NCBI GenBank assembly: GCA_046483495.1
Contig: JAWODC010000060.1
Span: 1-63,240 of the forward strand
Direction: 5' to 3'
Length of the DNA stretch: 63,240 bases
From: Desulfobacterales bacterium
GTDB lineage: Bacteria > Desulfobacterota > Desulfobacteria > Desulfobacterales > UBA5616
The translations under genes and the position numbers were made by a program. Below are positions 21,201 to 48,076 of the stretch, piece by piece. The notes below the pieces were generated by a model. It saw only the letters and a program-made list of their open reading frames with translations, was not told the DNA's origin and made no database searches. The stretch's first letter is position 1. Each line of letters opens with the position of its first letter.

Positions 21201-23864
21201 GTCCTCGAAAACGAAGGTATTGGTTGCCGAGCCGCCGATGATGTTCTCGATGCCGGCCGAGGCGCCAAGGGTGTTGGTGCCGTCCGTAACCGACACCGTG
21301 CCGTCTTCATGTAGAGTAAATGTCAGATCCATCCCGACCGCCGAAAAGTCGAGAATGTCCTCGTCGATCGTACCCCCGCTGATGATGGTGTAATTTCCCC
21401 AGCCGTCGTCGAAGACGAAGACATCGTCCGAGCTGCCGCCGATGACATTTTCGATCTTCGTCCCCGTGGCGGAATTCGTTCCCTCGGTGACGGTAACCGC
21501 TCCCGCCGCGAAGGTGAAGGTCATCGCTTTTGTCACCGCAGAGAAATCGAGGGTGTCGCTGTCGGTGTCGGATTCATCTGTGGCGGTATCCAAACCCCAG
21601 TTATTTACGAAATAGAATGTGTCGTCGAAATCGGTCCCCTCGAAAGTGTCCGATTCCGGACCGCCCAGGACACTCTCGATGTTGCCGATGTCGCCGGTCA
21701 CGTCAGTGGCGGTGGGGGTCGTGCTTCCAAGGGAAACCGCGACCCCGCCGCCCGTGTGATTGTCGTAGGCCAGGGTGTCGAATCCCGCGTCGGCCGCTTC
21801 CGTGATCGACTGGGTCCCACCGGTGACGACGTAAATGTCGTCTCCCGCCCCACCGGCCAGAGAGTCGCCTTCCCCGCCCCCGGCCAGGATATCATCGCCT
21901 TCCCCGCCGATAAGCGTGTCGGCGCCTAAGCCGCCGGCGAGCAGGTCATTCCCCGCTCCGCCGTCCAGGACATTTGCGTTCGCGTCGCCGCTAATCGCAT
22001 CGTTCCCGGAGCCGCCGGTGACGTTCACGAAATGGCTGATGCCCAGAGTCCCCGTGGCCGTCCCCGCCGAAAGGTCTACCGTAACCGGACTTGTATAGGC
22101 GGAGTAGTCCAGGGTGTTGGTGCCGCCCGTACCGCCGTCGATCGTTCCATCGATGCTTCCACCCTCTTCGAAGACAAACCGGTTGTCCCCGCTTCCGCCC
22201 TCGACCGCCTCGATGCCCCCCGTCTCTTCAAGCTGGTTCGTTCCGGACAAGACCGAAATCGAGGCGTTGGCATTGATGGTGAATGTCAGGTCGGCGGATA
22301 CGGCGGAAAAGTCGAGCGTGTCGGTGCCGGTCACGCCGCCATCCCAGATGCTGTCCTCTCCCCAGGCACCGGAAAAATGGAATGTATCCGACCCTTCCCC
22401 GCCGTCGAGGATGTCGTTGCCTCCGCCGCCGGTGATGTCATCATCGCCCGCGCCGCCGGTAAGCTCGTTGGCGTTTTCATCGCCCTTCAGCGTGTCCGCC
22501 CCTGCTCCGCCGATAACATTGCGGATATTGGAAATACCGCTGGTCCCCGGTGCCGTCCCGGACGATAGATCGACGGTTATCCCGCTCGTATAAGCGGAGT
22601 AGTCCAGGGTGTTGATGCCGCCCGTTCCCCCGTCGATGGTTCCCACGAAGACTGCCCCGTCCTCGAAAACGAAAGTGTTGTCCCCCTTGCCGCCTACAAT
22701 CCTTTCCATGCCCGCGGCGTTGTCCAGGGTGTTAACCCCGTCCGTCACGGAAACAGCACCGCCGACATGGATGGTATAGGTCAGGTTTGCCTCCACGGCG
22801 GAAAAGTCGAGAACGTCGCTGCCGCTCGAATCCGTGATGACATCCGAGCCCCAGCCATCCGAGAACAGGAATGTGTCGTTTCCCGAACCGCCGGTGATCG
22901 TGTCTTCGCCGGTGCCGCCCGCGATCGTGTCCGCTCCGGTCCCGCCTGAAATGACATTGTTGCCGGTACCGCCGGTCAGGGTGTCGTCACCGGCTCCGCC
23001 GACTATGTTATCGATGTTACTGATACCGGAGGTTCCCGTTGCCGTTCCCGCAAAGAGGTTTACTGATACGTCCGAGGTGTAATCCGAGTAATCCAGGGTG
23101 TCCGACCCGGCCGTCCCGCCGTCGATCGTTCCTACCAAGATTTCCCCGGTCCCAAAGTCAAAGAGGTCGCTACCCATGCCGCCAATGAGCGATTCCATTC
23201 CCGATGCCGAGATCGATCCGCCTACCCAGCCTGTCACCGAGATGGCTCCGCCTGCGCCAATGCTGAAGGTGAGATCCTCCGTGACAAACGCAAAGTCAAG
23301 GGTGTCGGTTCCACCGGAACCCCCGGTGATGCTCCCGGTCAAAGCACCGCCATCCAAAAAGACGAACTTATCCGAATTGTCCGCAGCGCCTGTGAGGTTT
23401 TCGATGCCGGAAAAGGAAACGTTACCCGTCTCGCCGGTATTGGGGCCGGTGATGTTCCACGTGCGGTCGCCGTCACCGGTGAATTCCAGAACGTCTCTGT
23501 CCGCTGTGGTATCCGTGAAGAACACGGGGATGTCGAACGGGTCGGTCATATCGATGGTGACGGCATCGTCGGATTCGGAACCGAAAATGCGGACCCCGGT
23601 CGTTTCGGAGAAGGCCTGGGCCGCCACAATCTGGGTGGTCGGGTCGGCATCATCGTTGTTGATCAGTTGAAGGGTATCCACGCCGTCGACCTGGTTTAGA
23701 GCCAGCGTCAGATCATTAACACCGCCGCCCATCGAATAGGACAGATCCGCTGAAAGCAATAACCGGGGTTCCAGCGGTTCGATTACGGCTTTTCGTCGGT
23801 ACACTTTAGCCGCGGCGGCTTGCTTTTTACGGGCCAATCGTCTTAAATTTCTGGCAAGACCCAT
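210..23864 (-). CDS. Giant LEPR-XLL domain, RTX-repeat surface/secreted protein (~7,884 aa), probably C-terminally truncated
   Basis: Single ORF. AGGAGG RBS precedes the ATG at 23864 (the ORF track extends to 23903). Basic N-terminus followed by IEPLEPRLLLSAD, many GGxGxDxL repeats, and long Gly/Ala/Ser/Val beta-repeat tracts. Ends abruptly at ...MEGESGI*. Confidence 0.9.
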   Translation of the reverse strand: MGLARNLRRLARKKQAAAAKVYRRKAVIEPLEPRLLLSADLSYSMGGGVNDLTLALNQVDGVDTLQLINNDDADPTTQIVAAQAFSETTGVRIFGSESDDAVTIDMTDPFDIPVFFTDTTADRDVLEFTGDGDRTWNITGPNTGETGNVSFSGIENLTGAADNSDKFVFLDGGALTGSITGGSGGTDTLDFAFVTEDLTFSIGAGGAISVTGWVGGSISASGMESLIGGMGSDLFDFGTGEILVGTIDGGTAGSDTLDYSDYTSDVSVNLFAGTATGTSGISNIDNIVGGAGDDTLTGGTGNNVISGGTGADTIAGGTGEDTITGGSGNDTFLFSDGWGSDVITDSSGSDVLDFSAVEANLTYTIHVGGAVSVTDGVNTLDNAAGMERIVGGKGDNTFVFEDGAVFVGTIDGGTGGINTLDYSAYTSGITVDLSSGTAPGTSGISNIRNVIGGAGADTLKGDENANELTGGAGDDDITGGGGNDILDGGEGSDTFHFSGAWGEDSIWDGGVTGTDTLDFSAVSADLTFTINANASISVLSGTNQLEETGGIEAVEGGSGDNRFVFEEGGSIDGTIDGGTGGTNTLDYSAYTSPVTVDLSAGTATGTLGISHFVNVTGGSGNDAISGDANANVLDGGAGNDLLAGGLGADTLIGGEGDDILAGGGEGDSLAGGAGDDIYVVTGGTQSITEAADAGFDTLAYDNHTGGGVAVSLGSTTPTATDVTGDIGNIESVLGGPESDTFEGTDFDDTFYFVNNWGLDTATDESDTDSDTLDFSAVTKAMTFTFAAGAVTVTEGTNSATGTKIENVIGGSSDDVFVFDDGWGNYTIISGGTIDEDILDFSAVGMDLTFTLHEDGTVSVTDGTNTLGASAGIENIIGGSATNTFVFEDQGGMDGYIEGAGTNILDYSAYTTTVFLDLSTMDVLYEGLVNGVLTQSYGVAYTTGLKGANNITGIIGGSSANDLLIGPQQDSVWSIDGPNSGTLNTTFEFSEIENITGSADFDDSFTVTAAGSLSGTLSGNAYGLVSSATHLEIPMSLAGVAEGTDTLTFSGGSYTDVTFTAVSADAGVIERDSDKLRFAGFESVVDNSAAENRTFTYPADATARITLGGGVGTGQSWSIEVDGVSYTHTAGESDDLEDVVAGLASQIAAGDYLTIVQDLSILITKTTGGAPVVVADLPVTGFASVEAPTTTDVSLRISEDGAGKLNITPENGEFTPFSFAEPSGHVYVNTGKGDDTITVEQFAITAALAIDGKDGTDSIVFEVQAGSSTKSVSFGTGTTGTTNFNGSTAFTYAHVEEANHLVVKATDGNDQISLSPSGSGYSVSSSNGTFGAVTFNSAIDSLTIDAKKGVDELTLNVGSSTSFSPSLTILADDTENSTADNDVLHLGSGSYASLRFGADWETVDGTGSVVDLVFDARPSIANRVHVFRDYSDNITIVDETDIGTTITSIKDPTGSLTINTGYNAPYTTEYIHIGEDPDNDVRAWGNLNFDLIIDAGTLNKNLDGEDSVTIFGDLTLTGHQLDITSENITINSGVTVSTSYASGTAGDINLTGFHITVGTGARLLAEGSDTEHSGDITIEAMDESALVTPLVDVDVSNVDVTISTDAVIRGRDVTILASADNRRLYAEDGTLTGTAADLLGSLFESLTSIGGAIAVVVGDASIDIAAGSEITARNFKADASVYADVKAVPFLEFGVAPSIGVAVTDAEVNVAGTITATGNAEFRTHTDHSMNVVADTSAIKGISAAIAVSVIVSDANTIISDTALLNIGGDLYVTADTVDRNRTMARSGAGKDGTVALAVAVTVEDGDTNAFLDGEANVAGNVTVKADQLGIDLPISKLYVIPSLGIGTSAQAGVGATSKGDFLDDAKATATGSVITKFKNALAPFIAKAQEKITGTGATYGPEPPADFGSKFDLAGAVAVLVDNNRTISRIGVSPTHTTEAAEPVAIDPGGLVAVTETHTAGGVAGSWYRYIGTEPLSDVSLGAEDFTVTSRWELFEHPHVVAGGFIEVLSTAATAPYVSANASAQNNSDTAGSQNTSEISGAMAISVGILNNIADAYINTNAVVDAAETLTIQAQALSDYTWAWGINLVQALTEQATYTVEDPSDDGEPNGGLSIWGAPDTTIAEFPVDIESGDTVEVEYNHTGTGIAGTWYEAKGALTGVNLVTEDFGDTTKWDVVETTVGDPTYKTTDRIVTINPAALDEETGDTVELRSGNSNGDVGTWYGFKGTTPEVVNLTTEDFTDEDRWEAINPVSRKATNFVTVLSNYLTGDFGVGYFILNDGAQATATGEKLAIAGAVDLLILSDLADARIKSGARINQKTNTGTDQDVVVQAVSHGKAVHIGGNINLPSIGADSTTFKDFGSAVKGSVVTDKTWLPKFGMNAKDGKGAVGITIMGYVGISEALATIEDGAMIHGDSLWVDAETGVLSVDFAASGGDSGKVAVNGVVTFNVIANKTIAQIENGAVIDIDSGIVFDNEDLDPAENGSLVVSAHDDSYVISLTGSVATSQSVGVGASVGVTVVDRNTQAFIGDLVGADPTTANGSIASDGNVHILAESGGFIGTLAVAGAKVSSNPAPPDNPDGDTWKNPGTGGTQGSDGTKQSNADLASWQSKMASVLTEGVEKGKIAGDIAKSVKDSVGGTQQSSSGVGISGSVAVNVVHDDTRAYILNSGPIIVGDADGVVDGLSLHAANTTTVGAIGGAGAYAKGSAGKTSVGVAGGFTINAQYGKTEAFIDHAASLELESLTIEALRRGWTVSLAAGLAAASGQKSYAVGGSVGVNVITCDTTAALMNMDGLVDVDGDVILNALDKTRIIAIGGSAGFGGKAGVGIAIGFSYVENTVSSTIFNLDDFTPAGDLDVMATSDALVISVTGSVGVATGGGGSGGYAGAGTVSINIVNNTTEAKILDTTINDATGDVTLSALDKTSIYTFAGAFAAGKKAGLGGAIAVNTLLNETAAFVENSTITTSGVFDAKAEERGTIVSLAVAGAGSQKLAIAGSIGLNLFDNDIDAHIFNSTITAGAVALTAEDREISVALGGGIAISTSSSAVGAAIGVNLIFNEVTAIVEASTLVSAATIDIDALAKEVLVSVTMGGAGGQKFALGGSVSANVVMSTVEAKVVSGVIGQDENDADIIRASDLDATGDIGISASDKTTAVVVAGGFAISLSSGAVGVAASTIYIENDILATIDGSTVTSTLGGVTLEAGVGQPDRTADPSDLSLGTTGVTMPEISSSSVVNVTFGGAGGSSFAAGFGISVNVINNTIEAGIQNGANVEAYDDVVLSAMDASVIDALAFGGAGSPSGGAAGGAISANVITNAIGTFISEATVRAGVNAAGDTLTNASADVILDSTSSSIIRALAIGASGGSSFAVSVSALGNAVANDVTAQISGSTIWAGGEVALSASDIAPSILPSWMLPEDKQETLDEKLDGSPLEPEANILAIMVSVAGSGNVAVSVSLMGNVVNNDVLANIEDSTILAGINATTRAVLNSNADVMLTSLSDAAIMAITVGVGASGNVAVQATGFGNVITNAVEASITGGSTVRSGGLVDLTAADQSQITSFGLSIAASGSAAVSAIVGANVITNSVIAQIAASTVFSGSTLDIDAATRSTIFSFTGGVAASGGAAVQVTLAANVVTNTTEASIINENIYDDDGNLVDSNASHVDAADDVTLSAEDTSSIDALAFGVSASGGGAVGVAAGANVIANTVGTAITGSSLETDGSLSLISESSSVIRALALGIAGSGGFAVQVTALGNVIANGVTASILDSIIAAMGDVRLYASDLAPSLLPAWMVPEDRADELNENLEDSPVDLEGNILAVMVSVAGSGGVAVNGAFSGNVITNTIAGTIDDSIVLAGATHADAYNSADGLDADDYAITEEGAGVVLDAKSRAAIMALTIGVAGSGAVAVNATGFGNAIANSLEAAIKGGSDVEAGGSVNLEAGDESDIRSAGVSVAGSTVAVGALIGANVITNSVAARIIGSRVKSGKEDFLADDGTTVIIPGLGVRLSAQSDAQIMGFSGGLAVGAGAGLISLTANVITNTTEAVIDGSNLDTEGAIVISAEDTSTIDALAIGVSAGAGAVGVGLGTSVITNTITTAIESSTLETDASLDLDAESASIIRTLSLGVSGGGFAVQVSAMGNAVANTVTSTILDSEVYAYGDVDLSAQDIAPSVIPEWMVGPALHSATLDPDTAVDTSADTIVVGENPWKTGDAVKYDNGGGTDINGIESGETYYIIAVDGEPTKVKLAASKDNAENGIAIDLGSSGTTGTNHQIMGLTADELNRALEDSPIDLDANILAVMVSVSGGGVAVNVGLMGNVVTNTVSTGIENSTVLAGATPSDTYDDTDLDITDFEITQWDADVTMSSLSDARIIALTAGVGVSGIVAANFTGFGNVITNSVQARIAGDATVMAGGLVDLSAEDQSSISSVGLSIAGSGGVSISGIIGYNGIANTVRAQIAGSTVETFTGGVDLAALSDADIFSFVGGVAASGMGAGQLSFAYNDIGNIIDASIVNETVEDVIRRAKVKATGNVTLSADNTSTIDAIAVGLSAAGGGAVGAAASENHIHNSVLTSISQSDVDSSYGSIGLSSESSDVVRSFAAGVAVSTFFSGQATVTINEIGNVTDARITGSTVWARGGVALSAVETAPSSVPVMLLPLAVVEELTDSLDGNTVDSGANIVSFAGSIAGSAGVSAGAAIAANTIANSIKAEIVDSTVTSVLSEVNATADSDSRIATLSAGFSAGTYAANASISTNAIANTIHADIRGASSVSAGGNINLKALDDTAIDSLTFSLAGGVVGAGGSVITNTVSNDVQAYVAGISTSAKARILRAKQISITADSTQNLEALSLGASVGLAAAGASVAWSTVDGLTKAYIGDYVDLGQTGTVDGLSVTANHHINANSEAYGLAAGIGAASINFATVDMAPEVRAYIGNDSNIKVTGDIVVASNLYATGVAEGIGVSAGGLAVGAMIAEVNLGKGNDIYEVASAVGDHTNIEAGALRISANSDDDLFADSAAGSGGVLSGAGADSRVSNDNATLVTLGNSIIDVKTLELSSIRNQDIDSRADAYTLGLLAGTGAVAKNTITGKANIDTNNTTVTAENIFITAVNRLTKQKLEADDSNLRAGSVAIGGGVTILTSGTDIGTDENPLETKITIGAGTTLTVEGVSGSSGNLIVQAYNDITAVDSVRVEAVSGLAGGAAGLSRIDAETLVDIDVDGATLENKSGDVYLTTRSSVSLYPSANLMVVSGLTGVGAADASSLINAENRVDITDATIKGEDVYIYAGRASASALSEPNFLYTIANAEIVTASLLPNITIPVLDADINETNTITITGATRVQSLEDVNLLAQEGIGGEGRARTEGVALSLSMIPYGMEVPDGADVSSTNTVSIGDNVLVEAGINNQSLVHIKPISLNGTDQPSVDTSLGTVKSRLDSLASGEHLLLTHHEKELLGLDPALKYEYAYLTAGEIPLTVSDGIIIHLVTDSFGNGIAGHYYQFELPGGGSESIVLENEDYTVTSRWTDLGASLTPEQQDAYTVYESDVTKNFKTQLDGKLYVIKPLNLDTPTISCVNVTNLLMEQRQTVIEWMISHGTDPEAVARYEVQLEALEATLVDQGLAEWIDGVLVVKKALDMLFVELPDVYASPGSVFIGADDGAQSGFAAMVGDQLNARADAGINILNKSPLLMAVNDAMVKDNRRIAVSGDELVVLTPGNVYFNNMSLSNLDMGIDGLAPVSGQTRVYKAGHDFAAGDAVRFEGITQSGWNALSGVYEVKSVSGDYFTIDFDATGYETYTPDFDLGTVTRVKEITILQDAYLESDYDLGGLDIPDVPQDLYILGRVINENGDLTIENLEGGVNVSGEIRAENVTIRAQGDFNLSTEDWLHTNRDPRQYVDYTALRNLVFDNITGAYDYEVFNDTDGIPGPDGNLSALALENAINNDYSSIVAQGRINITARYLNINGLVQSGTDHVTLDISEDFNPGAYTTSLLDDDGNPLPGISFGAHNIPVDGYYDAAQQAIVVEDIVPTGGSITLAGQIFSTGNGTLRVANGYTDVTIDNQSDYDLVLGRIDVTTFREGEIIIINTAALVKVEYRVAGDQIEETTYTGVFVPATASDISRIDYTAIAYDDYHFGETITYYPTIGLQYVWTEGQEKSHVEVYHYEQKSFNLLGFDWDALAADDSWTDMDIYDRDETPLLESEFVDLSSSGNVPWYAADSAYSVEFYRVPDKIIDLTPDSTIVKWTDTTLDGVTPDNAFYRYIGPSGAEAELSTIDYATASTGDNPTWEQIKDSGTLLTLNAQVANKTFQDPAKDQYYSDFENVTVDEFHDEWGGGWMREKTYYTRITTTTGIKDYFTHTLKADYPVDIEFIQGPISPEITITSGGDIRLQGELAVPHDLGVTPKIEGKITLTADGDIIQTETSAIFGANPTMTAGGSVYFNLQGGQGGNPTGLNITSDKDIEVILVSEDQTSSIIVDQVISIGGNVTLHAPDGVFALDADSLIKGNRIEIYSKRGFVGTAALPIEIDSAAFGMGGLAVRAEGDIYITEIDGDLNLIEPETFPESVEVEASIHSISGDVYLETVDGSIYDAFLELFRPSESIDIENLDPRVQELITAGTFTLDALMYPLSPDLYKTLYPHAEFLGSRIPMSATESPNIIGNNVTIIAGGSTGEIGHVSDMMSIDMTGNFAALSTPEKEVLSIATAADIIGIGYALYEYIGSGLSDVYFTLTKGTLVKNLSDNIVYRYVGEATLFDLSGVDYAQSDKWEATDIDPETYLRDPDSGRFQSDDQDAAFFSGTSWRRIDVDHATGSDPTVPVTVSIVSGDTVLVQLNADSYGLYRYTGSARSMDLVQQDYSNGTVWERLTTERGQRADHATDDDGAVDLSTGDLVLNKFEMENLTLQLWDDVDVDAIDESDPSGYGAFSAASGAGMALQTMGGFNIDSIRAGGNVRLQAHGSITDLNTDSTAAIGGFGDLILLSETGSIGSEADPLRIQLSDSSRLSAQAAGDIVINQVGGSLTIYGETQTIDDLRIAQIDAGGIVQIKVLDGDMYVGKVSSDTYIDLQAPNGSLLDIFDDEDLPSSNVVTPIIGNVYLHSGASGTIGTADNFLEIWIIDGELTSYSIGDTFIHSFGDLYVENMTSTDGDITVQVDGDAFIDRINAEKGIVTLNVDGAIVDYCNDVQGADTDADIDIHALGAVLNADDGVADALKRLETQISNLEANTGTGGIWLDNTGDLIIGGISDQVGIVAGTTVDISAASSITVSEAIDSAAGPVLLDATDDIHVHAPITSGGGTVTLLADRDITFNASGSIDTESGGATVTVRADNDKSGGGAITMADGSYVDATDGFIDMDATGDISLSHLRTTTQVDIDASAGSILDSGDSHLEIVASKAQLQAYGNIGLNANALEAGVAYLEAESSTGGIYLDDRNGLIVGQIGLVGDPVLNTAINGLRAQQTIRVTTTGFMRVREDVESTTADITLQAIDSAAMTLLPHPDGGTTVSALDGSDSDEDLLVEYNADIMAATSVTLLAGDDMLIDAGSTITTDEDGTTAVTDSITLRIDHGDADDNTGVDADGNGYHTGARFDLLGSISTTSLLITGEHDDDTFYLHPESLSGHTRVLGDIGDAAGGTDWFVLDHLPSITGTHDRPGHLLTDGSDGAVLDTIDLDGCGGTDHYVVNIGAGGTAYLVNVQDSGAPNDGSDTLRMHTLDAVGTDAFDWNHPQESGTDPGTNDVFLLRRNFVAYLTPNPVYDPDDADSNEFLTPVQRINYDTSINGRLMVSAGDGDDRFYVDDNSAITTLDGGLGRDLFQIGQVFGTNPNGYDYPEGDRPDDIRTVADDTQNIDLTADSDDMELLRITRGWLSQGITHALTAFGGEGGNTFNVYSNKAVLRMEGESGI

Positions 23865-24827
23865 ACCTACCTCCTGAATGACAACGACAAGGTGTTGGCT
23901 CATCGTTGCCTGTCATCACACCCTTAAATAGGCAACCTATAGATTATAAACGTATTTAGATCATTTTCGCTGTTCCGCCTACATCCGGAAGACGGAAAAA
24001 ATCCCATTATTGCAGGTATCTTTTATACCTGTTCAATTCTTTTTTGATATTGTACCTTGGTACGAGACCGGCTTTTTCAAGCCTGTGACGAAAAGACCTC
24101 ACCGTATCGGCTGCACCCGATGAACCCCCAGCAATCCGGGCGGCCGAATCGGCACATGCGGTAGAGCCCCATGAAACAGCAAATCAACACTCATGCAACT
24201 TTTTTCAATGCCACTTTCTGACAAAATGCGTCGAACACGTTAAAAGACTTTAGCGTTTGGTGAAACTTTTCAAAAATGAAGCGGGTGATGCGAAGATCTC
24301 ATTGCGATAAAAAAGGTTGGAATTTCTGGTTCTTGACACCGTAAGGGCGTCCTGGAGATGAACGGCAGGTCGAGTTTTCAAATAAACCGGCGATTGCCGA
24401 TGATGCGGCGAAGGTGAACTTTCAATTTTTGGAGAAGCCGTTGACAGCATCGTGAACTCTTTTGATGAACCCTCGAAAAAAAGATTTTATAGATAGTATA
24501 CGTTTAACAGGAACAAAGGATATCGTCAAGAAAATATTATTAATTATTACGAATGGTTTTGTACTTTTAAAGCGGTTTAAAAGTGGGCATGAACCGCGGG
24601 TTCAGCAAGGACCAGGCCCCGAATCGCTTATGCTACAATGGTTGGGATGGCGTGCTTCGGATAATGTCTTATTTTTCATGGGACGGTGCGGATTGCTTGC
24701 GGAAAAGTATTGTGTTTTATGGGCTCCGGACATCCAACGATTTCGTTTTTGCATTCCATGGACATCCGAAACCATCAACACCGCGTTGCCTGTTTTTTTT
24801 ATTTAGAGGCTGCGAAGACCCTTTTTT

Positions 24828-26159
24828 TCAATACGTGCCGACCGCCCGCTGCAAAAAGGCATGGGCCAGGTGATAGTCGTACAACGCCCGGTAATAATTG
24901 ACCCGGGCGCGGGTCAACAGGGTCTGGGCGTCCAGAACTTCAGTAATGGTCGTCATTTGTGCCTTGTAGGATTCTTCGTTTACCCTCAGGTTCTCTTCCC
25001 CCTGTTCAACGGCCTTGCGCGTCACCGGAATGTTCTCCTCGGCCGTTTCGAGGCCGAGCATCGCCTCCTTTACATTGAGGATGATGTTGTCCTGCACGGC
25101 GTTCCGGGTTTTTTCAAGCTCTGTTTTCGTGCTCTTTTGCTCCTGCACGGCATAGTAGGTCTTTCCCCACTCCCAGACGCTCCAGGACGCCACCGCCATG
25201 GCTTCCCACCGGTCGCCGTCATGATACAGGCTGCCGGACACATCCGGTTTGTCGCCTTCTTTGATGAAGCTGTAGTTCATGCTGATTTCAGGATAATACC
25301 CGCTTCTTGCATACCGGATCTGCTGCTCCGACTGTTCTATGCTGTTGTCGATCAGGGCCATTTCGGGGCGGTTGGCAAGGGCCACCTCGATCATTTTCTC
25401 GAACACGACATCGGCGTTCACCCGGACGAGGATATCCTCCACCTCAGCAGGGGCATCCACCGGACGCGAGAGAAGGGTGTTGAATTCCGACCGCGCCAGC
25501 CTGGCATCGTTCACCGCCTGGACCAGGATATTGCGGGCATTGGCCAACTCCAGTTCCGCTTTGAGCAGATCGTTGATCGGTATCATTCCCGCCCGATGGA
25601 AATTTTTGGTGACCTCCACGTTCGACAACAGTGACGCCACTTCCTTTCGGACGACCTCCACGGCTTTATCCACAATCAGGATGCCGAAATAGGCATTTTT
25701 AACCTCAAGCGCCAAATCCAGCCGGGCCAACTCGATTTCCATCTTCGACCTGTCGACTCCCAGCCTTGCGATATCATATGCGCTTAGCAGGGCAAAACCG
25801 GTAAACACAGGCTGCGTGAGGGTCGCCCGCCACTGGTAATTGTCCTTTGAGCTTGTTGGAATTTCCTGCGTCAACCCATAACGGTAGGTCGTCTCATCGT
25901 CGAACCGCGTGTAGGCATAGTCCGTATTGACCCGAAACAACAGATCCGACCGCCTCTGGCTTCGCTCATACCGGGCCTGCACCAGCCGTTCTTTTTGCGC
26001 CCTAAACGACCAGTTCTTCGCAAACGCTTCATGGATGCTGTCTTCCAGGGTAAACACTACTTCATCCTGGGCGTACAGCCGATGCGAAAAAGCCGCTAGT
26101 AGCAGCATCATTGCCCCAATGAAAATCGTAACTCCCGGTGCCACTGTATTTCTTCTCAT
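24828..26159 (-). CDS. TolC-family outer membrane efflux protein
   Basis: 443 aa. Signal-peptide-like N-terminus, two OEP-like halves (LTQPVFTGF; YYPEISM...VWEWG), C-terminal EVLDAQ...L.RAVG pattern. Confidence 0.9.
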   Translation of the reverse strand: MRRNTVAPGVTIFIGAMMLLLAAFSHRLYAQDEVVFTLEDSIHEAFAKNWSFRAQKERLVQARYERSQRRSDLLFRVNTDYAYTRFDDETTYRYGLTQEIPTSSKDNYQWRATLTQPVFTGFALLSAYDIARLGVDRSKMEIELARLDLALEVKNAYFGILIVDKAVEVVRKEVASLLSNVEVTKNFHRAGMIPINDLLKAELELANARNILVQAVNDARLARSEFNTLLSRPVDAPAEVEDILVRVNADVVFEKMIEVALANRPEMALIDNSIEQSEQQIRYARSGYYPEISMNYSFIKEGDKPDVSGSLYHDGDRWEAMAVASWSVWEWGKTYYAVQEQKSTKTELEKTRNAVQDNIILNVKEAMLGLETAEENIPVTRKAVEQGEENLRVNEESYKAQMTTITEVLDAQTLLTRARVNYYRALYDYHLAHAFLQRAVGTY

Positions 26160-26239
26160 TTCATTTCCTCTTCAGGCCGGTTCAGGTCAACCCAATTCAC
26201 CCCGCTGTGATAGAAGGCCATTAAAGCGCCATGTCCCCC

Positions 26240-27073
26240 TTACGACGTCTCGTGAAACTCAACCCTGCACTTCAGCCCCGGTGGGAGTTCGAAGCCGGGG
26301 TTCGGTATCTCCAGGCGGACGCCGAAGGTGCCGCTCGCCGCATCGATGACTTTGTCCACGATCGTTACCTCGGCTTCATAAGCGCCGCCCACCGGCGGTT
26401 CAGGCTTTACGGTGCCGCTCATGCCGACCTGAACCGAACCGTACGCCGAAACAGGCAAAATGACTTCCACGTTCAGCGGATCGATCTGGGCGATTTTGAG
26501 AATCGGTTTGTCTTCAACATATTCCCCTTTTGCCAGGTACCGTTCCATGATCACGCCGGAAATCGGACTGGTGATCGTCTTCCGCTTCACGGCTTCATCG
26601 GCCTGGTGAAATTCCAGTTCATGCAGCCGCTTCTGATCCAGGGCCGCGGCCAGTTCGGTTTCCGCCAGAATTCGCTGGGTATCCACCTCGTCCCACTTCT
26701 GCATAGGCAAAGCGTTTACTTCGTAAAGGTCGCTGATCCGCTTGCTGTTTCGTCGGGCATATTCCAGGGCGGCCTTCTTCGCCTTGATGTTCGATTCCAT
26801 ATCCGCGCGGGCCCGCGCCAGCGCCAGGGTCGCCTTTTCGACACCGGACCGCAGCCGGGCCACAACCTGGCCGGCGGACACAACATTCCCTCGATCCACG
26901 TTCACGGCTTCGAGAACCCCGGGAACCTCACTCCCGAGCTCCACCACCAGGTGAGGTTCGATCAAGCCGTTGTATTCCACTGTTCCCGTAGTCACGGGAA
27001 CCGGTTCGGCACACAAAAGCGGCATCCCTATCCAAAAGGCCAAAACAAATGAGAAAACAATTAGACGTTTCAT
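26240..27073 (-). CDS. Small HlyD/RND-type periplasmic adaptor (membrane fusion protein)
   Basis: 277 aa. Signal peptide, lipoyl-like halves (VDRGNVVSAGQVVARL; ITSPISGVI), coiled-coil hairpin, IDAASGTFGVRLEIPNP...LPPG. Confidence 0.88.
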   Translation of the reverse strand: MKRLIVFSFVLAFWIGMPLLCAEPVPVTTGTVEYNGLIEPHLVVELGSEVPGVLEAVNVDRGNVVSAGQVVARLRSGVEKATLALARARADMESNIKAKKAALEYARRNSKRISDLYEVNALPMQKWDEVDTQRILAETELAAALDQKRLHELEFHQADEAVKRKTITSPISGVIMERYLAKGEYVEDKPILKIAQIDPLNVEVILPVSAYGSVQVGMSGTVKPEPPVGGAYEAEVTIVDKVIDAASGTFGVRLEIPNPGFELPPGLKCRVEFHETS

Positions 27074-27088
27074 ACCTTTCTCCCGGCA

Positions 27089-29083
27089 TCATTCAAACCG
27101 GCCTGAAGAAGCCAGTGAATCACTCAATTGTTCATCTATTTTCAAGAGGTTCCGGCGCATGCGGGAATGCAGCCGCTCCGCACGCCACTGCGCCATCCGG
27201 AACACCATTGTTCCGGCCCATGACGCCGGCCGGAAATTTTCCTTCTCCAGGATCATTCCCGCCAGCCACCGAAACGGTTTTCCGATGAATACACGAATCA
27301 ATTCATCGTCCAGGGAAACCAGTGCCAGGCAGGTGCCGGGGTCCCCCTGCCGGGCGCACCGTCCGAAAAGCTGCCGGTCGATGCGCCGGGATTCGTGCCG
27401 TTCGGTCGCCAGGACAAAGAGTCCGCCCTTTTCGGCAACGCCCGAGGCCAGGCGGATATCGGTGCCCCTTCCCGCCATATTTGTGGCCACGGTGATCCGG
27501 CCAATGCCGCCGGCCATGGCGATGACATCGGCCTCCTCCCGGTCCTGCCGAGCGTTGAGCACGCGGTGCGGCAGGCATTCTCTCTGCAATAGTCCGCTCA
27601 GGTGTTCGGAGGCCTCGACCGACCGGGTGCCGATCAAAACGGGCCGCCCCCGACCCTGCATTTCACGAATCTTCTCGATGACGGCCGTCCATTTCCGCCC
27701 GGTGCTCGAGTAAACGCGGTCCGGGCGGTATTCCCGCCGAGTCGGGAAATTTGTCGACATGGATACCACCCGCAGTCGGTAAACCGACCATAATTCCTGT
27801 GCCACCTCCCGGGCCGTTCCCGTCATCCCCGCAAGGGCCAGATAGCGCCGAAAAAACCGCTGATAGCTGATGCGCGCGCGCGTTTGCTTGGGCACGGTCA
27901 CCTCGCACCCCTCCTTGACCTCTATGAGCTGGTGAAGCCCCATCTCCCAGGACCGGTCCGCCATAATTCGGCCGGTGTATTCGTCGATAATCTGTACTTT
28001 TCCGTCTTTTACCAGGTAATGCCTGTCCGGCTTAAACAGATGGTGAGCGACGATGCTCCGGCGCACCAGCTCTTCACGCTCCTCCTGCCTGATGGGGATC
28101 GGTACGTTCTCCCAGTCGGAAGTGCACGCCGATGATTTGCCGGATTGGGTCAGCGCCACATCCCGCATGTCTTCCAAAAGGATAAAGTCGCGGTTGGGCG
28201 TTAGGGACCCGGCAATCTTCATCGCATGACGGTAAACTTCAGGGTCATACTGGTGATCGGCCTGTGAAGAAATGATCAAGGGTGTACGCGCCTCGTCGAT
28301 TAGAATGCTGTCCGCTTCATCGACAATAGCGTAATGCAGCCCCCGCATGACCAGCTGTTCGATGCGCGAGTTTTCCCCGAAGAGCCGTTCGACCTTCAAA
28401 CGCATCTGCGTGGGCCTGTCCCATAAAATGATTCTGTCCCTCAAGTAGTCAAAGGCGATTTCCTTGTTGGTGCAGTATGTGACATCACAGGCATAGGCAT
28501 TGCGCCGGGCCGCTGCGTCCATCCCGTGAACCACGGTCCCGACGGTAAGACCCATGGTTTCATAAATCGGCCGCATCCAATCGGCATCCCGTTTGGCAAG
28601 GTAATCGTTTACCGTGATAATGTGGACAGGCACCCCGGCCAGGGCCATAACACATGCCGGCAGGGTCGCCACCAGGGTTTTGCCCTCACCGGTTTCCATT
28701 TCCGCCACCATGGCATTGAGCAGAACCCATCCGCCGATCAGCTGGACATCATAATGCGGCATTCCCAAACGGCGATCCGCGACCTCACGGACAAGGGCAA
28801 ACACCCGTGATACGAGTTCACGGGCAAATCCCTCCCGTTTGAGCCGCCCCCCCAGCTCAATGCAATCCGCCGCAATTTGAGCATCGGTCATCGTTCGTAC
28901 GGATTGGCGCAACGCATTGACCGCATCGGGCAGAAACCTGAATGCACCGTGTTTCGGCCGAAAAAATGAGACGAGAAACCCTTTGATGTCCCCCGACAAT
29001 CGGTCGAGTTTGCCCGGCGCCTCTTCCTCTTTTTCCGGATAAATCCCGCCGGTATGATATGGATACGTGAATGGGTTATACAT
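27089..29083 (-). CDS. SecA-like DEAD-motor ATPase, short paralogue (664 aa)
   Basis: EMETGEGKT, HIITVNDYLAKRD, IVDEADSILIDEARTPLIIS, GMTGTA, ATNMAGRGTDI and HESRRIDRQLFGRCARQGDPG are all present. Ends shortly after the start of the helical scaffold. Confidence 0.92.
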   Translation of the reverse strand: MYNPFTYPYHTGGIYPEKEEEAPGKLDRLSGDIKGFLVSFFRPKHGAFRFLPDAVNALRQSVRTMTDAQIAADCIELGGRLKREGFARELVSRVFALVREVADRRLGMPHYDVQLIGGWVLLNAMVAEMETGEGKTLVATLPACVMALAGVPVHIITVNDYLAKRDADWMRPIYETMGLTVGTVVHGMDAAARRNAYACDVTYCTNKEIAFDYLRDRIILWDRPTQMRLKVERLFGENSRIEQLVMRGLHYAIVDEADSILIDEARTPLIISSQADHQYDPEVYRHAMKIAGSLTPNRDFILLEDMRDVALTQSGKSSACTSDWENVPIPIRQEEREELVRRSIVAHHLFKPDRHYLVKDGKVQIIDEYTGRIMADRSWEMGLHQLIEVKEGCEVTVPKQTRARISYQRFFRRYLALAGMTGTAREVAQELWSVYRLRVVSMSTNFPTRREYRPDRVYSSTGRKWTAVIEKIREMQGRGRPVLIGTRSVEASEHLSGLLQRECLPHRVLNARQDREEADVIAMAGGIGRITVATNMAGRGTDIRLASGVAEKGGLFVLATERHESRRIDRQLFGRCARQGDPGTCLALVSLDDELIRVFIGKPFRWLAGMILEKENFRPASWAGTMVFRMAQWRAERLHSRMRRNLLKIDEQLSDSLASSGRFE

Positions 29084-31223
29084 TGAATTTTCTTAAGAAC
29101 AATTGTCTCAATCCACGATACCATCGGTGAATGAGCGGCTCCGACCCATGGTCAAAGCGAACGTATACACGGCCGCCCACATGATAAAGGCTCTCACAAG
29201 CAGGCATCTCTATGTCCAATAAAAAAATCTTCTTAAAAGCCTTGTCGCCCATCATGTCCCTGGGATCGGTCGCGATTTCGCCGCCGCCTTCCTTGCCGAG
29301 GGCCCTCCCGGGGAGTTGATCCGTTGCCGCGGGAATTTCCCGTTTCAGTACGGCCGGCACGGTTCGGCGGATTTCTTCCGAAAATCGAACATCCACGAAA
29401 CGGGTCCGCTGCCTGACCTTATCGACATCGTTTTGTGAGACGACAACCCGGGCGATTCTCCCGGACCCTTCCAGCACATAGCCCAAAAGCTGCCCCCGTC
29501 TGACAAACATCGACGGCATGTCCTGAACCATCGGAACGATGAACACCCCGTCGGCGGCGCTGTAAACCGTCAATTCCGCTACACGCTCCCGGGCGTCTTC
29601 CAGTTTGGCGGAAAGGTGCTCCATCTCCTTCAACGTATTCTCGGCTTTTACCCTGTCGCTGATAATCTCGGTGTCATATATAACCCGTGCTTCGCGAAGT
29701 TGGGCCTCGAGAAGCGTGATTTGGGCGGGCAGGAGCGGATCGATGCATTGAATAAGGGGGGCTCCCTTCCGGACGAACGCACCCGGTTCGGCAAGGATGC
29801 GATCAACGAACCCATTTGTTCCGGCACGGACAAATGATCTCTCCGGCACCCACATGATGCCCTCCGTCAGGGTAGCCAATGGAACGGGAACCAGGCCGAC
29901 GACCGAAAAAAGCAGGAAAACGACGACCGCGACGGCAGCCGTAGCCCGTCCTCGCCGGTGGTCCAGCTGTGGAGACGTAAAAAGAAACCGCAGGCCTTTG
30001 ATGGCCGGCAGTATGAACATACTGAATACGCCCCATATTGCGAAGAGCACCCCGATAAAGAAAAACTTGCCGGCAACGAACAGAATAATGGCCGCATAGA
30101 CCACCATCCGGTACAAAAATGAGGCAATCGTATAGGCAACAAACCAGAAGCGTTCCCCCTTAGACGCCATGGGCTCCTCGACATCCTTGATGCGCAAGAT
30201 GTACCGCTGAATCAGGTAAAAAAAGTAGCGGCTTCCACGCTGGGCGAGATTGGGAATCTCCAGCACATCGGCCAGCATATAATACGCATCATACCGGAGC
30301 AGCGGATTCCCATTGAAAAACAGGGACGAAACGCCCGCAATAAATATGATGTTGTATGTCAAGGATCGCACCGGTCCGGGTTCCATGTTGATCCAGAAAA
30401 AAAGCGCCAGTGCAGCAATGAAGAGCTCAACCGCCATGCCGGCGCCGCCTACGAGGATGCGTTCCCGTCTCTTGTGAAACGCCGATGCAGCAGAGGCATC
30501 CACGTAGGGAATGGGCGTAAACACCAGCATCATGATGCCCATCTCGTGCACTTCTCCGCCGTTTATCTTGACGGTAAACGCATGGGCAAACTCATGGAAT
30601 GTTTTTAGAAACGGAAATGTCAGCCAGAGAATCGCCAGGTTCTTCGGGGATAGAATACGGTCAGCGATATTATGCGTCAGTTCGGACCAGTGGGTCCATG
30701 CCATAAAAATCGCCAGGCACATCATCACCAGCCAGACGAGAGCACCGGCACGACTGAAAATCGGCCTGACGAACGGCTGCAGTCGTTTTAATACGGTTTC
30801 CGGGTCCAGCAGTGAAAACCGCATGAAAAGAGGGCTTCGCAGGTTTTGCTTCAATTTTCCAAACCGCAGTTTTTCAAACCGTTTCAACAGTTCCCGAGTG
30901 TCGGGAACCACGTCGGCCTGAAGCGCATCGATGGCATGGAGCCGGCTGAGCAGGCGAATGAAATCTTCCTGGGTCGGCGCGTCCTCCTCCAGGCGGGAAC
31001 GGGCCGTATCCCAAATTTCCTGCACCGTCCGCTCCCCGTCCATCAGCCCGATGAGCTGATAGGCCACCGGAGTGAATCGCTGAAACCGACCGGAAGTATG
31101 GTCCTGAAGAATGTACCAGAGCTCATTGCGATAATAATGCCGATGGATTTCCATATGGCCGCGAAGCCGGGGCTTCAGACCGGCCACCCGGTACCAGGAA
31201 GGGCTGTACATGGAACTTTTCAT
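29076..31223 (-). CDS. PqqD-like N-domain + M50 (site-2) metallopeptidase + HlyD-like adaptor fusion
   Basis: 715 aa. N-terminal LQDHTSGRFQRF...LMDGERTVQEIW (PqqD-like), multiple TM segments, FHEFAHA (HExxH), NGNPLLRYD, and a C-terminal lipoyl/coiled-coil adaptor. Confidence 0.85.
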   Translation of the reverse strand: MKSSMYSPSWYRVAGLKPRLRGHMEIHRHYYRNELWYILQDHTSGRFQRFTPVAYQLIGLMDGERTVQEIWDTARSRLEEDAPTQEDFIRLLSRLHAIDALQADVVPDTRELLKRFEKLRFGKLKQNLRSPLFMRFSLLDPETVLKRLQPFVRPIFSRAGALVWLVMMCLAIFMAWTHWSELTHNIADRILSPKNLAILWLTFPFLKTFHEFAHAFTVKINGGEVHEMGIMMLVFTPIPYVDASAASAFHKRRERILVGGAGMAVELFIAALALFFWINMEPGPVRSLTYNIIFIAGVSSLFFNGNPLLRYDAYYMLADVLEIPNLAQRGSRYFFYLIQRYILRIKDVEEPMASKGERFWFVAYTIASFLYRMVVYAAIILFVAGKFFFIGVLFAIWGVFSMFILPAIKGLRFLFTSPQLDHRRGRATAAVAVVVFLLFSVVGLVPVPLATLTEGIMWVPERSFVRAGTNGFVDRILAEPGAFVRKGAPLIQCIDPLLPAQITLLEAQLREARVIYDTEIISDRVKAENTLKEMEHLSAKLEDARERVAELTVYSAADGVFIVPMVQDMPSMFVRRGQLLGYVLEGSGRIARVVVSQNDVDKVRQRTRFVDVRFSEEIRRTVPAVLKREIPAATDQLPGRALGKEGGGEIATDPRDMMGDKAFKKIFLLDIEMPACESLYHVGGRVYVRFDHGSEPLIHRWYRGLRQLFLRKFNV

Positions 31224-31283
31224 AACGCGCGCGCTTCTCCAGGACCTGTTTGGTGTCCTATTACGGGCGTGCCGTCTTTCGGT

Positions 31284-33164
31284 TTACGGTATCCAGCGCC
31301 AGATTTGAAGCCGCAGCCAATCCGCAGCTCGATGCGTCCATATCCAAATCAACTTGCGCCGATCGACAGTGATCTTGCCGATGCCCTCCATTCCCGGGCG
31401 CAGGCGGGCCGATGCCGTTTCAATTCGGCCCTCCACCCGAAAAAAGTTTCGGCCTTCCTCGGCGGTTGTCACCGGAGTGATCTTGCTGATGGTAAACGGG
31501 AAGGACTTTCCCGGTATGGAAGAAAAAATGAGTTCGCTCTTCTGCCCCACCGCGATTTTTGATATGTCGCGTTCGTCCACCTCGATAATGACACGATAGG
31601 CATCCAGGGGCGCCAACTCAAACAAAACGTCACCCCGTTCAACCGGGGCGCCGAGGGATTGTGTCAGGTCCCCGCTCATCACAACGGCATCGAACGGCGC
31701 CCGGAGCTGCGTGCGGGAAAGCTGCTCATCGATAAGGGCGATCTGGGCTTCGGCCTGCTCCATTTTCGCCTTCGTGATCTGTATCCTGGAGCGCTCGTGA
31801 TTGGCCATGGCCTCGTTGAACTGGTTTTCCAGCTGATTTCGTTCAGTCAGCCACTTGAACCGTTCCAATTTGAGGTCCCGGTCATCCAGAAGGCATATAA
31901 GGTCTCCTTCACCCACGGTGTCGCCGGCACGAACAGACGCCTCTTTGACATATCCGTCAAATGGAGCCGCCACGGCGCGTTTTATACGGCCTTCGATCAT
32001 GCCGGTCGCCGTTATCCGATAGTCGGTGCTGTACAATGAAAAAAACAATACGAGTACCATCAGACCGGCGGCAATCAGTTTTCGAAGCGGATAGCCGGGT
32101 CCCAAAAAACGTTTCAGTTGAACAGCGGCGGCATCTATCGCCTTCGAGCCGATCCAACGTTCCTCCATCCGTTTGGCATTCAGAATCGCTCCGACAATTC
32201 CGGCGGCGGTGTCGCACAGCTCCACTTCGGCCTGACCGAACGGGTTTTTCGCAGGACGCTCCAGAAGAAGCCCTCCGTAACAGCGGCCCTCAGCCTGCAA
32301 CGGAATGGTCAATATCGTTTCCGACCCGTGCTTTCGTGCAAGTTCCTCATTGGTGCGGGTAACCACCCCCGTCTCGGCGTTGTCGGCGGGAAGCTTCACT
32401 ATGGCTTTCTGATCGACCGCCTCATCCATGGCAAGGCCGATGGCCCGCATCAGGTTCATCTGCTTTGAAAAGTCGGCACTGTGTGACAGTACGCTGACCT
32501 GAATTCTGTTCTTCTTGATAAACCCGAGACTGACGCGGTCGCATTTCAGGAGGATGGAGAGCTTGGTGACAAAGGACATGGCGGCTGTATAGAAGCGTCC
32601 GTTTTCGACGCCGCTGACGATCAGATCGAGCAGCTTTTCAAGCCGGTCATGGGATTCTTTTGTACGGGCGGCGTCCGTCCGGCGAATCAGCACTTCCAGC
32701 CATGCGGCACCCCAGTGGAGCTGCCGCATGGCGGATTGCGCTTCGAAACGACTCTCCTGTTCAACCTCCAGAACGACGACCCCGTGAATTTTTTCCGACA
32801 CCAGTATCGGGTAGGCGATATGCCGCGTACCCGGTGATGCACCGTCGACAAGAAACCCCCGGCGCTCCCGAACAGCCTTTTCCGCGGTTCCCGTTAGATG
32901 AGTCATGCCGAGTTTTGCGTCCGGCCATACCGCCACCGGGGCATAGGGCCCTTGATCCGGTTCGCCCATTAACACCATGGCACACCGAATGCCTTCCACC
33001 ATGCGGCACTGCAGCGGCAGCCAGCTTTGGCAAAATGCTTTCGGGCTGGACGCTTCGGCAAACCGGCGCCAGAAAGGGCGATCCGGATCGATATCGCGGG
33101 GGTCCGCTCCCGTTCGCTTTCCCCCGGCAGCTCCGAGATCCAGATCTGCCCGGTCTTTTTCCAT
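31284..33164 (-). CDS. GAF-domain-containing HlyD-family adaptor
   Basis: 626 aa. GAF-like N-terminal region (ILTIPL...YGGLLLER), one TM helix, then AVAAPFDGYV...VRAGDTVGEGD, coiled coil, LRAPFDAVV and LRPGMEG. Confidence 0.85.
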   Translation of the reverse strand: MEKDRADLDLGAAGGKRTGADPRDIDPDRPFWRRFAEASSPKAFCQSWLPLQCRMVEGIRCAMVLMGEPDQGPYAPVAVWPDAKLGMTHLTGTAEKAVRERRGFLVDGASPGTRHIAYPILVSEKIHGVVVLEVEQESRFEAQSAMRQLHWGAAWLEVLIRRTDAARTKESHDRLEKLLDLIVSGVENGRFYTAAMSFVTKLSILLKCDRVSLGFIKKNRIQVSVLSHSADFSKQMNLMRAIGLAMDEAVDQKAIVKLPADNAETGVVTRTNEELARKHGSETILTIPLQAEGRCYGGLLLERPAKNPFGQAEVELCDTAAGIVGAILNAKRMEERWIGSKAIDAAAVQLKRFLGPGYPLRKLIAAGLMVLVLFFSLYSTDYRITATGMIEGRIKRAVAAPFDGYVKEASVRAGDTVGEGDLICLLDDRDLKLERFKWLTERNQLENQFNEAMANHERSRIQITKAKMEQAEAQIALIDEQLSRTQLRAPFDAVVMSGDLTQSLGAPVERGDVLFELAPLDAYRVIIEVDERDISKIAVGQKSELIFSSIPGKSFPFTISKITPVTTAEEGRNFFRVEGRIETASARLRPGMEGIGKITVDRRKLIWIWTHRAADWLRLQIWRWIP

Positions 33165-33186
33165 TTATGGAAATGTCCCTAAAGTG

Positions 33187-33525
33187 TTATTGAACGGATG
33201 TCGATGGAGGAGCCTGGGGTGTACCGATATCCAGCTTCCCGAACTGCTGCTCATAGTTCTGAACGATATTGTTCAGCAGGACCGACAGGCGTTTTGCCGC
33301 AAAAGGGCTTAAGACGATTCGGTCCGTCAACTGGACCTTCACTTCTTTCTGGCCCGCATGCCATGCCTGGTTCATGCCGAAAAGAAGTACGATTTCCTCC
33401 CGGCCCGCGGCCACGTTGGAAACATTGGCGTAAACACTGCGCATGTTCGAATCATCCCATACAATCCTCTGCTGACCTGTTTGAGCTTCTGGTGTTTCAG
33501 CATTCTTTTTTTGTTCCGCCGGCAT
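33187..33525 (-). CDS. DUF3467-family small protein
   Basis: 112 aa from the ATG at 33525 (AAGGAGG RBS). Motif WDDSNMRSVYAN...EEIVLLFG...RIVLSPFAAKRL...YEQQFG. Confidence 0.8.
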   Translation of the reverse strand: MPAEQKKNAETPEAQTGQQRIVWDDSNMRSVYANVSNVAAGREEIVLLFGMNQAWHAGQKEVKVQLTDRIVLSPFAAKRLSVLLNNIVQNYEQQFGKLDIGTPQAPPSTSVQ

Positions 33526-33542
33526 TGTGTCCTCCTTGTTTG

Positions 33543-33679
33543 GTGTCCATCCGGAAATGGCCGCTTGGTTCAGAGCAAGGCCTGAACGTTTTTGAAATCG
33601 CAGTATTTGGTGGTGAACCAATCGATTTGTCTAATGTACGCAGCTCCGGGCCAAAAAGATTCCATTTATGGATGGGCGA
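33543..33679. repeat. Degenerate palindromic MITE/ERIC-like repeat
   Basis: Ends GTGTCCATCCGGAAATGG and CCATTTATGGATGGGCGA are imperfect inverted repeats (13/18) and resemble the ends at 40321-40463 and 56444-56588. Confidence 0.55.
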
Positions 33680-33816
33680 AAGAATGATCCGTTAATGATA
33701 TGGTTTTGATAGTTCACCGCCAAAATTCGGTTTACACTCCTATATCGTTTTACAGATATTGTCAAGCAGACGGTTTTTCGCGTTCGTCTCATTGTGACAG
33801 CAAGTCCCCGGATGAC

Positions 33817-34791: not shown

Positions 34792-34854
34792 CGTTCATAT
34801 GCAAGCACTCGATATAATGACGGATTCAAAAAACATCACAGTTCCGCCGTCGTT

Positions 34855-35886: not shown

Positions 35887-35890
35887 CGAA

Positions 35891-37780: not shown

Positions 37781-37881
37781 TTTTTCAGCTCCTTAAATCG
37801 TTGTTTGTGATGTCGCATCCCGTCCGATGCCGGTGACTCCCGGCCGGGACACGCACATCGCTTCTTTTATCGTCTATTTTT

Positions 37882-47999: not shown

Positions 48000-48076
48000 T
48001 TTCAGTTTATAAAAGGACTCCGGCTTTCAATGGTATGAACCGGCGTTTCGGATTGCAAGGCATAATGTATGAATAT

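Follow-up and report, generated by a model that had tools for sequence, protein, structure and literature searches.

The window analysed here is the whole of a 63,240-nucleotide stretch from a Desulfobacterales bacterium (positions 1 to 63,240 of contig JAWODC010000060.1, assembly GCA_046483495.1), and it carries a gene for a short SecA-like ATPase in the middle of a conserved cassette. In minus-strand order the cassette consists of the DUF3467, GAF-HlyD, M50-HlyD fusion, SecA-like, short HlyD and TolC genes, after which comes a gap of 924 bases and then the gene of a giant protein (Table 1). The DUF3467 gene lies 22 bases upstream of the GAF-HlyD gene, a placement repeated in four related loci (L005, L006, L012 and L013), and a Pfam scan of the window found no ABC, RND or MFS exporter in the operon. 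An earlier, sequence-only reading had described the SecA-like gene as a SecA paralogue reduced to its motor and repurposed for a channel other than SecY; it overlooked the giant LEPR-XLL gene, which encodes the predicted cargo, the RRE domain of the M50-HlyD fusion, the DUF3467 gene and a 2015 publication on loci of this kind.

Table 1. Cassette, giant gene and other features of the window, with two SecA-less cassettes from other genomes
Feature	Position	Strand	Remarks
DUF3467 protein, first cassette gene	33187..33525	-	frame 144 aa, likely start Met33 giving 112 aa; PF11950, 80 bits
GAF-HlyD adaptor, 626 aa	31284..33164	-	cytoplasmic GAF 198-326, membrane helix ~360-378, periplasmic HlyD
RRE/M50/HlyD fusion, 715 aa	29076..31223	-	PqqD/RRE-like 37-97, M50-type membrane metalloprotease, C-terminal HlyD
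SecA-like ATPase, 664 aa	27089..29083	-	NBD1, PPXD, NBD2, first scaffold helix 618-660 and conserved tail
Short HlyD/RND-type periplasmic adaptor, 277 aa	26240..27073	-	RND_mfp 114.4 bits (cut-off 94.9); N-terminal signal-like hydrophobic segment
TolC-family outer-membrane channel, 443 aa	24828..26159	-	OEP 188 bits; type_I_sec_TolC 128 bits, below cut-off
Giant protein, 7,897 aa	210..23903	-	likely true start Met14 at 23864; LEPR-XLL leader, RTX repeats, LktA_tand_53; predicted cargo
LEPR-XLL motif near giant N-terminus (residues 40-59)	23727..23786	-	NF012209; ..EPLEPRLLLSAD..
Opp/Dpp-type ABC importer	33817-39959	-	two ATPases, family-5 solute-binding protein, two permeases; directly upstream of cassette, no evident link
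SAM hydroxide adenosyltransferase	43996-44796		
RuvB	44868-45908		
Tol-Pal-type genes	47163-52306	-	MotA/TolQ family, TolA/TonB C-terminal domain, TolB, TPR/YfiO-like lipoprotein
Fumarate reductase/succinate dehydrogenase subunits	53711-56445		
DnaX	59396-61102		
SecA-less cassette L022	G074:C7:428000-447000		
SecA-less cassette L024	G064:C61:30000-48000		

In the SecA-like protein Pfam places SecA_DEAD at residues 52-432 (353 bits), SecA_PP_bind at 282-388 and P-loop_SecA from 447 onward, and the same scan found neither SecA_SW (PF07516) nor SEC-C in the 664-codon frame, whose translation ends ...AQWRAERLHSRMRRNLLKIDEQLSDSLASSGRFE*. Against the housekeeping SecA model TIGR00963, residues 55-653 align to positions 1-617 of 787; among solved structures the aligned part is 19-601 of 802 in Bacillus subtilis SecA (1m6n) and 21-611 of 781 in Clostridioides difficile SecA2 (6t4h), the latter being the top sequence match at 468 bits. 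Since the alignments to TIGR00963 and 1m6n stop short, the protein ends early in the scaffold helix, just where the sequence-only reading had put its end. An AlphaFold2 model built on an alignment of 36 family members (pLDDT 82, pTM 0.81) has a single terminal helix at 618-660, and by the Pfam and NCBIfam profiles and this model the wing domain, the two-helix finger and SEC-C are all missing. The protein scores under the cut-offs both of the housekeeping models (TIGR00963, 615.5 bits against 800; PRK12904, 638.6 against 814), and so does not count as full-length SecA, and of the SecA2 models (TIGR03714, 498.1 against 930; TIGR04221, 455.5 against 725; TIGR04397, 567.2 against 1085; NF012136, 415.3 against 1100).

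The motifs of the motor are intact, as had been noted: in all 36 family members the Walker A residues G132, G134 and K135, the Walker B residues D255, E256 and D258, and likewise R539-D542, R567, R570, Q571, G574 and R575 are invariant. A Foldseek search of the pdb library with the model returned SecA chains, led by 6itc_A (TM 0.81 by query, rmsd 3.4, 610 columns) and including two pieces of Escherichia coli SecA, 5k9t (SecA-N68) and 3bxz (the DEAD motor by itself), in which NBD1, PPXD and NBD2 are likewise present and the C-terminal third is missing. Their ATPase is deregulated, and they are not known to translocate. Those two are laboratory truncations, whereas the SecA-like protein is a natural one with a 43-residue scaffold helix, a conserved tail, an N-terminal extension and an insert in NBD1. 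As judged by profiles, alignments and predicted fold, it is a true SecA paralogue reduced to the motor and the first scaffold helix.

A complete SecA is encoded elsewhere in the genome, on contig C7, as the sequence-only reading had asked to be checked; it has 872 aa, with SecA_SW at 597-808 and SEC-C, and the SecA-like protein is 45% identical to it over residues 54-602. Relative to this housekeeping copy, three regions of the SecA-like protein stand out: residues 1-50, which differ and in which a G.YPE motif is weakly conserved; about 19 residues inserted into NBD1 (residues ~217-240), where model confidence is low; and the C-terminal tail, conserved in the family with the consensus ..LLK.D...LAFSG..E. 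We regard all three as candidate docking surfaces. The genome, which is 96.7% complete, gave one SecY match and no second secY, in keeping with the earlier observation that no secY paralogue accompanies the gene. A SecB-like nature was considered as a possibility for the DUF3467 protein; SecB itself (PF02556) was not found in the genome.

Relatives of the SecA-like protein are equally short. In a search for which lengths up to 1162 aa were eligible, all 120 proteins among the matches listed (query included) have 557-679 aa and none carries PF07516, so that full-length homologues, which would have spoken against the idea of a reduced SecA, did not appear, and truncation is by these lengths a trait of the whole family. 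Nor is there a frameshifted continuation downstream, where a 15-base gap is followed by the short HlyD gene; a six-frame search of the whole genome for SecA_SW found the housekeeping copy on contig C7 only. In a 37-sequence tree one branch, with support 100/100, parts 26 SecA-like sequences from 11 housekeeping SecAs, which answers the earlier suggestion of a tree as far as housekeeping SecA is concerned; SecA2 sequences, other phyla and the sequences of Kamneva et al. 2015 are not included in it. Among the SecA-like sequences, those from Gammaproteobacteria and Desulfobacterales are intermingled, which points to horizontal spread. Two SecA-like clusters (P0082 and P0101) are labelled 'prepilin peptidase' in a public source, apparently a mis-annotation.

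It might be supposed that the SecA-like gene is a decaying or mis-assembled secA fragment with no function of its own, given that its product is shorter than any housekeeping SecA and falls below the cut-off of every SecA and SecA2 model. We give this practically no credence. A fragment would not be expected to keep its length and end point in every listed relative, its catalytic residues and a family-specific C-terminal tail, a fixed synteny across three taxonomic groups and a confidently predicted fold; the conservation seen in these comparisons rules the idea out.

The partner whose gene overlaps that of the SecA-like protein is the M50-HlyD fusion. The overlap of 8 bases noted earlier is real by the coordinates and, taken with the fixed gene order described below, makes translational coupling of the two genes plausible. 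The fusion has an HExxH motif at 210-214 and NxxPxxxxD at 304-312, of which H210, E211, H214, N304, P307 and D312 do not vary among the 22 sequences compared, and its hydrophobic segments lie within 159-447; the match to PF02163 (Peptidase M50) is 20.5 bits, under the cut-off of 27.2. Two models of leader peptidases for ribosomally synthesized and post-translationally modified peptides (RiPPs), which combine an RRE with an M50 domain, align to its first ~400 residues with HExxH kept: daptide_HExxH (NF041824), residues 19-395 to positions 2-354 of 379, at 143.5 bits (cut-off 300), and the YydH/LiaK model NF058609 at 33.6 bits (cut-off 225). The fusion differs from these enzymes in scoring far under their cut-offs, in having an HlyD adaptor and in its presumed substrate, which is thousands of residues long and not a short peptide.

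Less can be said of the DUF3467 protein. Its AlphaFold2 model is poor (pLDDT 50.6, pTM 0.28), it has no sequence match at E<=10 among solved structures, it falls in the protein atlas with DUF3467 clusters only, and the single paper found to name the family is unrelated. Our alignment of the family omits the ranges from L015 and L016, which contain stop codons. A second DUF3467 match in the genome (G000:C72:54973-55212, minus strand) lies inside a 386-codon frame and may be fused to another domain. A scan of 23700-34000 for promoters and terminators returned nothing useful above the shuffled background.

The giant protein beyond the TolC gene is acidic and poor in cysteine (4 Cys), with RTX repeats at residues 241-684, where 14 of its 15 GGxGxD motifs are found, and 21 LktA_tand_53 repeats. 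Its N-terminus matches the LEPR-8K model (NF012209) above the cut-off of 17, scoring 28 bits with hmmscan and 33.7 bits when the whole genome was searched, and according to the latter this match, adjoining the cassette, is the only one in the genome. Even a lax hydropathy threshold picks out no segment in its first 200 residues, so a Sec-type hydrophobic signal is absent there. In an alignment of 24 leaders, from which the N-termini of L040, L043, L046, L049, L055, L058 and L062 were left out, a short basic stretch leads into E.LEPRxLLSAD, E45, R47 and S51 being the same in every leader; Met14 is, on this alignment, the likely true start. LEPR-XLL frames among the sampled genomes reach 23,093 aa. 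In the available part of a 2026 preprint on Chlorochromatium, giants of 20,647 and 36,806 aa are reported with LEPRxLL N-termini and without known transport signals, and a SapC-like gene is mentioned as well. We looked for such a gene between the TolC and giant genes and saw no suggestive open reading frame (ORF) of at least 40 aa in the 924-base gap, where shorter ORFs were not family-searched.

The GAF-HlyD, M50-HlyD, SecA-like and short HlyD genes keep one order in all 15 related loci, within the reach of each contig; these loci come from Desulfobacterales, Gammaproteobacteria (some of them Chromatiaceae) and Burkholderiales. Among 151 genomes of the order to which the window belongs, 30 hold between them 33 close M50-HlyD genes (at least 33% identity), and 30 of the 33 directly adjoin a short-frame SecA-like gene; for the other three the genomes hold a second SecA-type match, at a position not listed. 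The giant gene often abuts the cassette; in genome G145 a frame of 23,093 codons begins right after the SecA-like gene. In three loci (L008, L009 and L019) the gene next to the cassette begins ..MEE[LM]ERRLL[LM]SAD... In one Comamonadaceae locus (L016, 12445-20769, plus strand) the cassette is followed by frames of 669 and 2,105 codons which, by eye, resemble a two-partner-secretion pair.

LEPR-8K proteins and the M50-HlyD gene tend to occur in the same genomes. In the order sample 26 genomes gave a LEPR-8K match, namely 20 of the 30 with a close M50-HlyD gene against 6 of the 121 without. In a sample of 151 gammaproteobacterial genomes, the class of one of the carriers, the figures are 10 of 14 with M50-HlyD and 4 of 137 without. 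Genomes reached through the related loci all have a LEPR-8K protein (5/5), as opposed to none of 14 control genomes. Sampled genomes are often incomplete and related genomes are not independent; for these reasons the counts show an association and are not proof, and both circumstances weigh against leaning on them too heavily.

We favor, as the probable explanation, that the SecA-like protein is the cytoplasmic ATPase of an ABC-less, TolC-linked machine that exports and processes the LEPR-XLL giant independently of SecYEG. Our reasoning is based on (i) the domain content of the SecA-like protein; (ii) the presence in the same genome of a separate SecA and a single SecY; (iii) the conserved cassette and (iv) the genomic link to LEPR-XLL proteins. 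The working model is as follows. The RRE-like domain of the M50-HlyD fusion would recognize the short basic leader with its ..E.LEPRxLLSAD motif, and the M50 active site would cut the leader off. The PPXD clamp of the SecA-like protein would hold the unfolded giant chain and drive it, N-terminus first, through a conduit formed by the membrane domain of the M50-HlyD fusion, the three HlyD-type adaptors and TolC. The N-terminal extension, the ~19-residue NBD1 insert and the C-terminal tail would dock the motor in place of the lost elements that contact SecY, gating would fall to GAF-HlyD, and DUF3467 may help to handle the cargo. A wider version of this model, which we put forward tentatively as a possibility somewhat short of an even bet, is that the largest bacterial proteins have a distinct secretion system in which an N-terminal LEPR-XLL leader, read by an RRE domain, is cut by an M50 protease and a SecA-derived motor feeds an HlyD/TolC duct, with neither SecYEG nor an ABC transporter involved; the LEPR-tagged giant symbiosis proteins of Chlorochromatium would be covered by it as well.

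Bearing on the motor's role are two genomes, G064 and G074, whose loci consist of a giant gene, TolC, short HlyD, (GAF-)HlyD and M50-HlyD without a SecA-like gene; each genome has one SecA-type match at E<=1e-60. These SecA-less cassettes imply that some versions either do without the motor or have another ATPase in its place. By gene content there is a wider M50-HlyD/TolC family, of which one branch has the SecA-like motor and which does not depend on it throughout. The earlier idea that the ATPase has been repurposed for a non-SecY channel therefore holds in part: it fits the conserved HlyD/M50/TolC context, and it is weakened by the two genomes that have the cassette without the gene.

The same two genomes lend something to a two-step route, in which the SecA-like protein, serving the cargo alone as chaperone, unfoldase or targeting factor, passes the giant to the housekeeping SecA/SecYEG, the M50-HlyD fusion acts as leader peptidase only and the HlyD and TolC proteins carry the giant out of the periplasm through the outer membrane. 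If cassettes can do without the SecA-like gene, crossing of the inner membrane may not need its product, and a complete housekeeping SecA and a SecY are at hand in the genome. Mycobacterial SecA2 offers a parallel: it too is a smaller paralogue of SecA, and its partner is the canonical SecY. Nevertheless, we consider this route unlikely. SecA contacts SecY through its scaffold, two-helix finger and wing region, and the SecY-contacting parts are missing from the SecA-like protein; the LEPR leader lacks a Sec-type hydrophobic core; and 30 of the 33 close M50-HlyD genes have the SecA-like gene beside them.

Other observations bear on the association with giant proteins, and they too count against an export machine for LEPR-XLL cargo. 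Ten of the 30 genomes with a close M50-HlyD gene gave no LEPR-8K match, and conversely there are the six LEPR-8K genomes without a close one, of which three (G064, G074 and G076) have a distant M50-HlyD and three (G133, G041 and G142) have none; the gammaproteobacterial sample has four genomes of each discordant kind, with M50-HlyD and no LEPR-8K and the reverse. Loci L005 and L006 have no adjacent giant gene, the LEPR genes of that genome being on another contig. The N-terminal placement of the RTX repeats in the present giant is not general among LEPR-tagged giants: the others have them C-terminally or, in the parts examined, not at all, and for this reason we gave up, as a general argument, the notion of an N-terminal RTX ratchet that helps the chain out N-terminus first. 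Finally, the cassette contains no known pore-forming transporter, and the M50 membrane domain as the channel is a conjecture.

Some of this would be expected if the cassette were a device for regulated intramembrane proteolysis and signalling, or for processing and efflux of small RiPP-like peptides, with the giant genes as neighbors for another reason. M50 proteases classically perform regulated intramembrane proteolysis. The cassette contains a GAF sensor domain and an RRE-like domain of the kind typical of RiPP enzymes, in the SecA-less versions genes for a histidine kinase and a sigma-54 response regulator come after it, and the ten genomes just mentioned have no detectable LEPR-8K protein for it to export. 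Set against these points, M50-HlyD and LEPR-8K co-occur, often side by side, in both of the separate taxonomic samples; the gaps of 15-80 bases between the operon genes showed no gene for a small precursor peptide; and a SecA-type clamp motor is suited to the threading of polypeptides. We judge such a device to be improbable, more so than the two-step route.

The SecA-like family and its locus have been known computationally since 2015, and the present window is one more example and not a new kind. Kamneva, Poudel and Ward (PLoS One 2015, PMC4452313), in the text available to us, described a second SecA copy in Gram-negative bacteria from which all or most of SecA_SW is missing, encoded with proteins of GAF, Peptidase_M50 and HlyD domains and sometimes OEP/TolC, and related the locus to type I secretion. 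In their proposal the SecA_DEAD protein is the ATPase that replaces an ABC transporter, and the M50 protein may form the pore; they also reported spread by horizontal transfer. The biological role was called 'completely unknown' and no cargo was named in that text. Our protein shares with their secondary SecA_DEAD proteins the presence of SecA_DEAD, PPXD and NBD2, the absence of SecA_SW and a canonical SecA elsewhere in the genome, and the GAF/M50/HlyD/OEP neighborhood recurs in the window and its relatives. The present analysis goes beyond the available text of PMC4452313 with a link to a cargo and its leader, with the RRE-like domain and DUF3467, and with versions that lack the SecA-like gene: the main text of that paper does not contain the words giant, LEPR, PqqD, DUF3467 or 'large protein', and its supplements may name neighboring large genes. 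We found no published follow-up to it and no paper tying LEPR-XLL proteins to the cassette, so that, as far as our literature searches reach, the link between the two is not in print.

There is precedent for parts of the arrangement in several systems. Accessory SecA2, in mycobacteria and in the SecA2/SecY2 pairs of Gram-positive bacteria, is likewise a second, specialized SecA paralogue for a subset of cargo, but SecA2 chains among the structures listed have ~780 residues, whereas the protein described here is considerably shorter and is found without a secY2, in a Gram-negative host and in a TolC/HlyD context. Type I secretion of giant RTX adhesins (HlyB-HlyD-TolC, LapEBC) has in common with the cassette the HlyD adaptors, TolC and a very large, acidic, cysteine-poor RTX cargo. 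It differs in needing an ABC transporter, of which the operon has none, in a C-terminal, uncleaved signal where the conserved feature found in the giant is N-terminal, and in the adaptors, of which the cassette encodes three, one fused to a protease. The idea of cleaving a leader resembles what peptidase-containing ABC exporters do. A SecA motor with preprotein-binding domains and without scaffold or wing also occurs inside giant proteins of Omnitrophota, where, according to the part of West-Roberts et al. (2023, bioRxiv 10.1101/2023.11.21.568195) available to us, it was proposed to aid export; there the motor is part of the giant itself, in a type-II-like context, whereas here it is a separate protein in an HlyD/M50/TolC cassette.

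LEPR-XLL proteins measure thousands to tens of thousands of residues, and if the cassette is their exporter it would explain how they pass two membranes; it would also mean that a SecA motor has been reused outside the Sec pathway. Mutations could be aimed cleanly at three points of the model: the leader, the active site of the protease and K135, the lysine of Walker A. As the available text of PMC4452313 names a cassette-bearing bacterium that can be cultured, Methylobacterium extorquens AM1 (genes META1p2399-2402), the question lends itself to a direct test.

With regard to expression, metatranscriptome contigs from four runs of one study match parts of every gene of the locus at at least 99% identity. 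One of them (29045-29239) spans the junction of the M50-HlyD and SecA-like genes, and contig depth is greatest over the DUF3467 gene, in all four runs, as well as where the giant gene has its 5' end. Such contigs give neither strand nor level and may include carried-over DNA, which lessens what they can contribute to the export model; their cover of the locus is incomplete, and as holes prove nothing we made no use of them. The contigs are compatible with transcription of the locus, and we take them no further.

Other genes of the window are given in Table 1. There is a step in G+C content along the window, with 0.57-0.64 over the giant gene, 0.55-0.58 over the cassette and 0.47-0.54 in the rest (1-24000 compared with 38000-63240), which would fit horizontal acquisition of the giant gene and the cassette.

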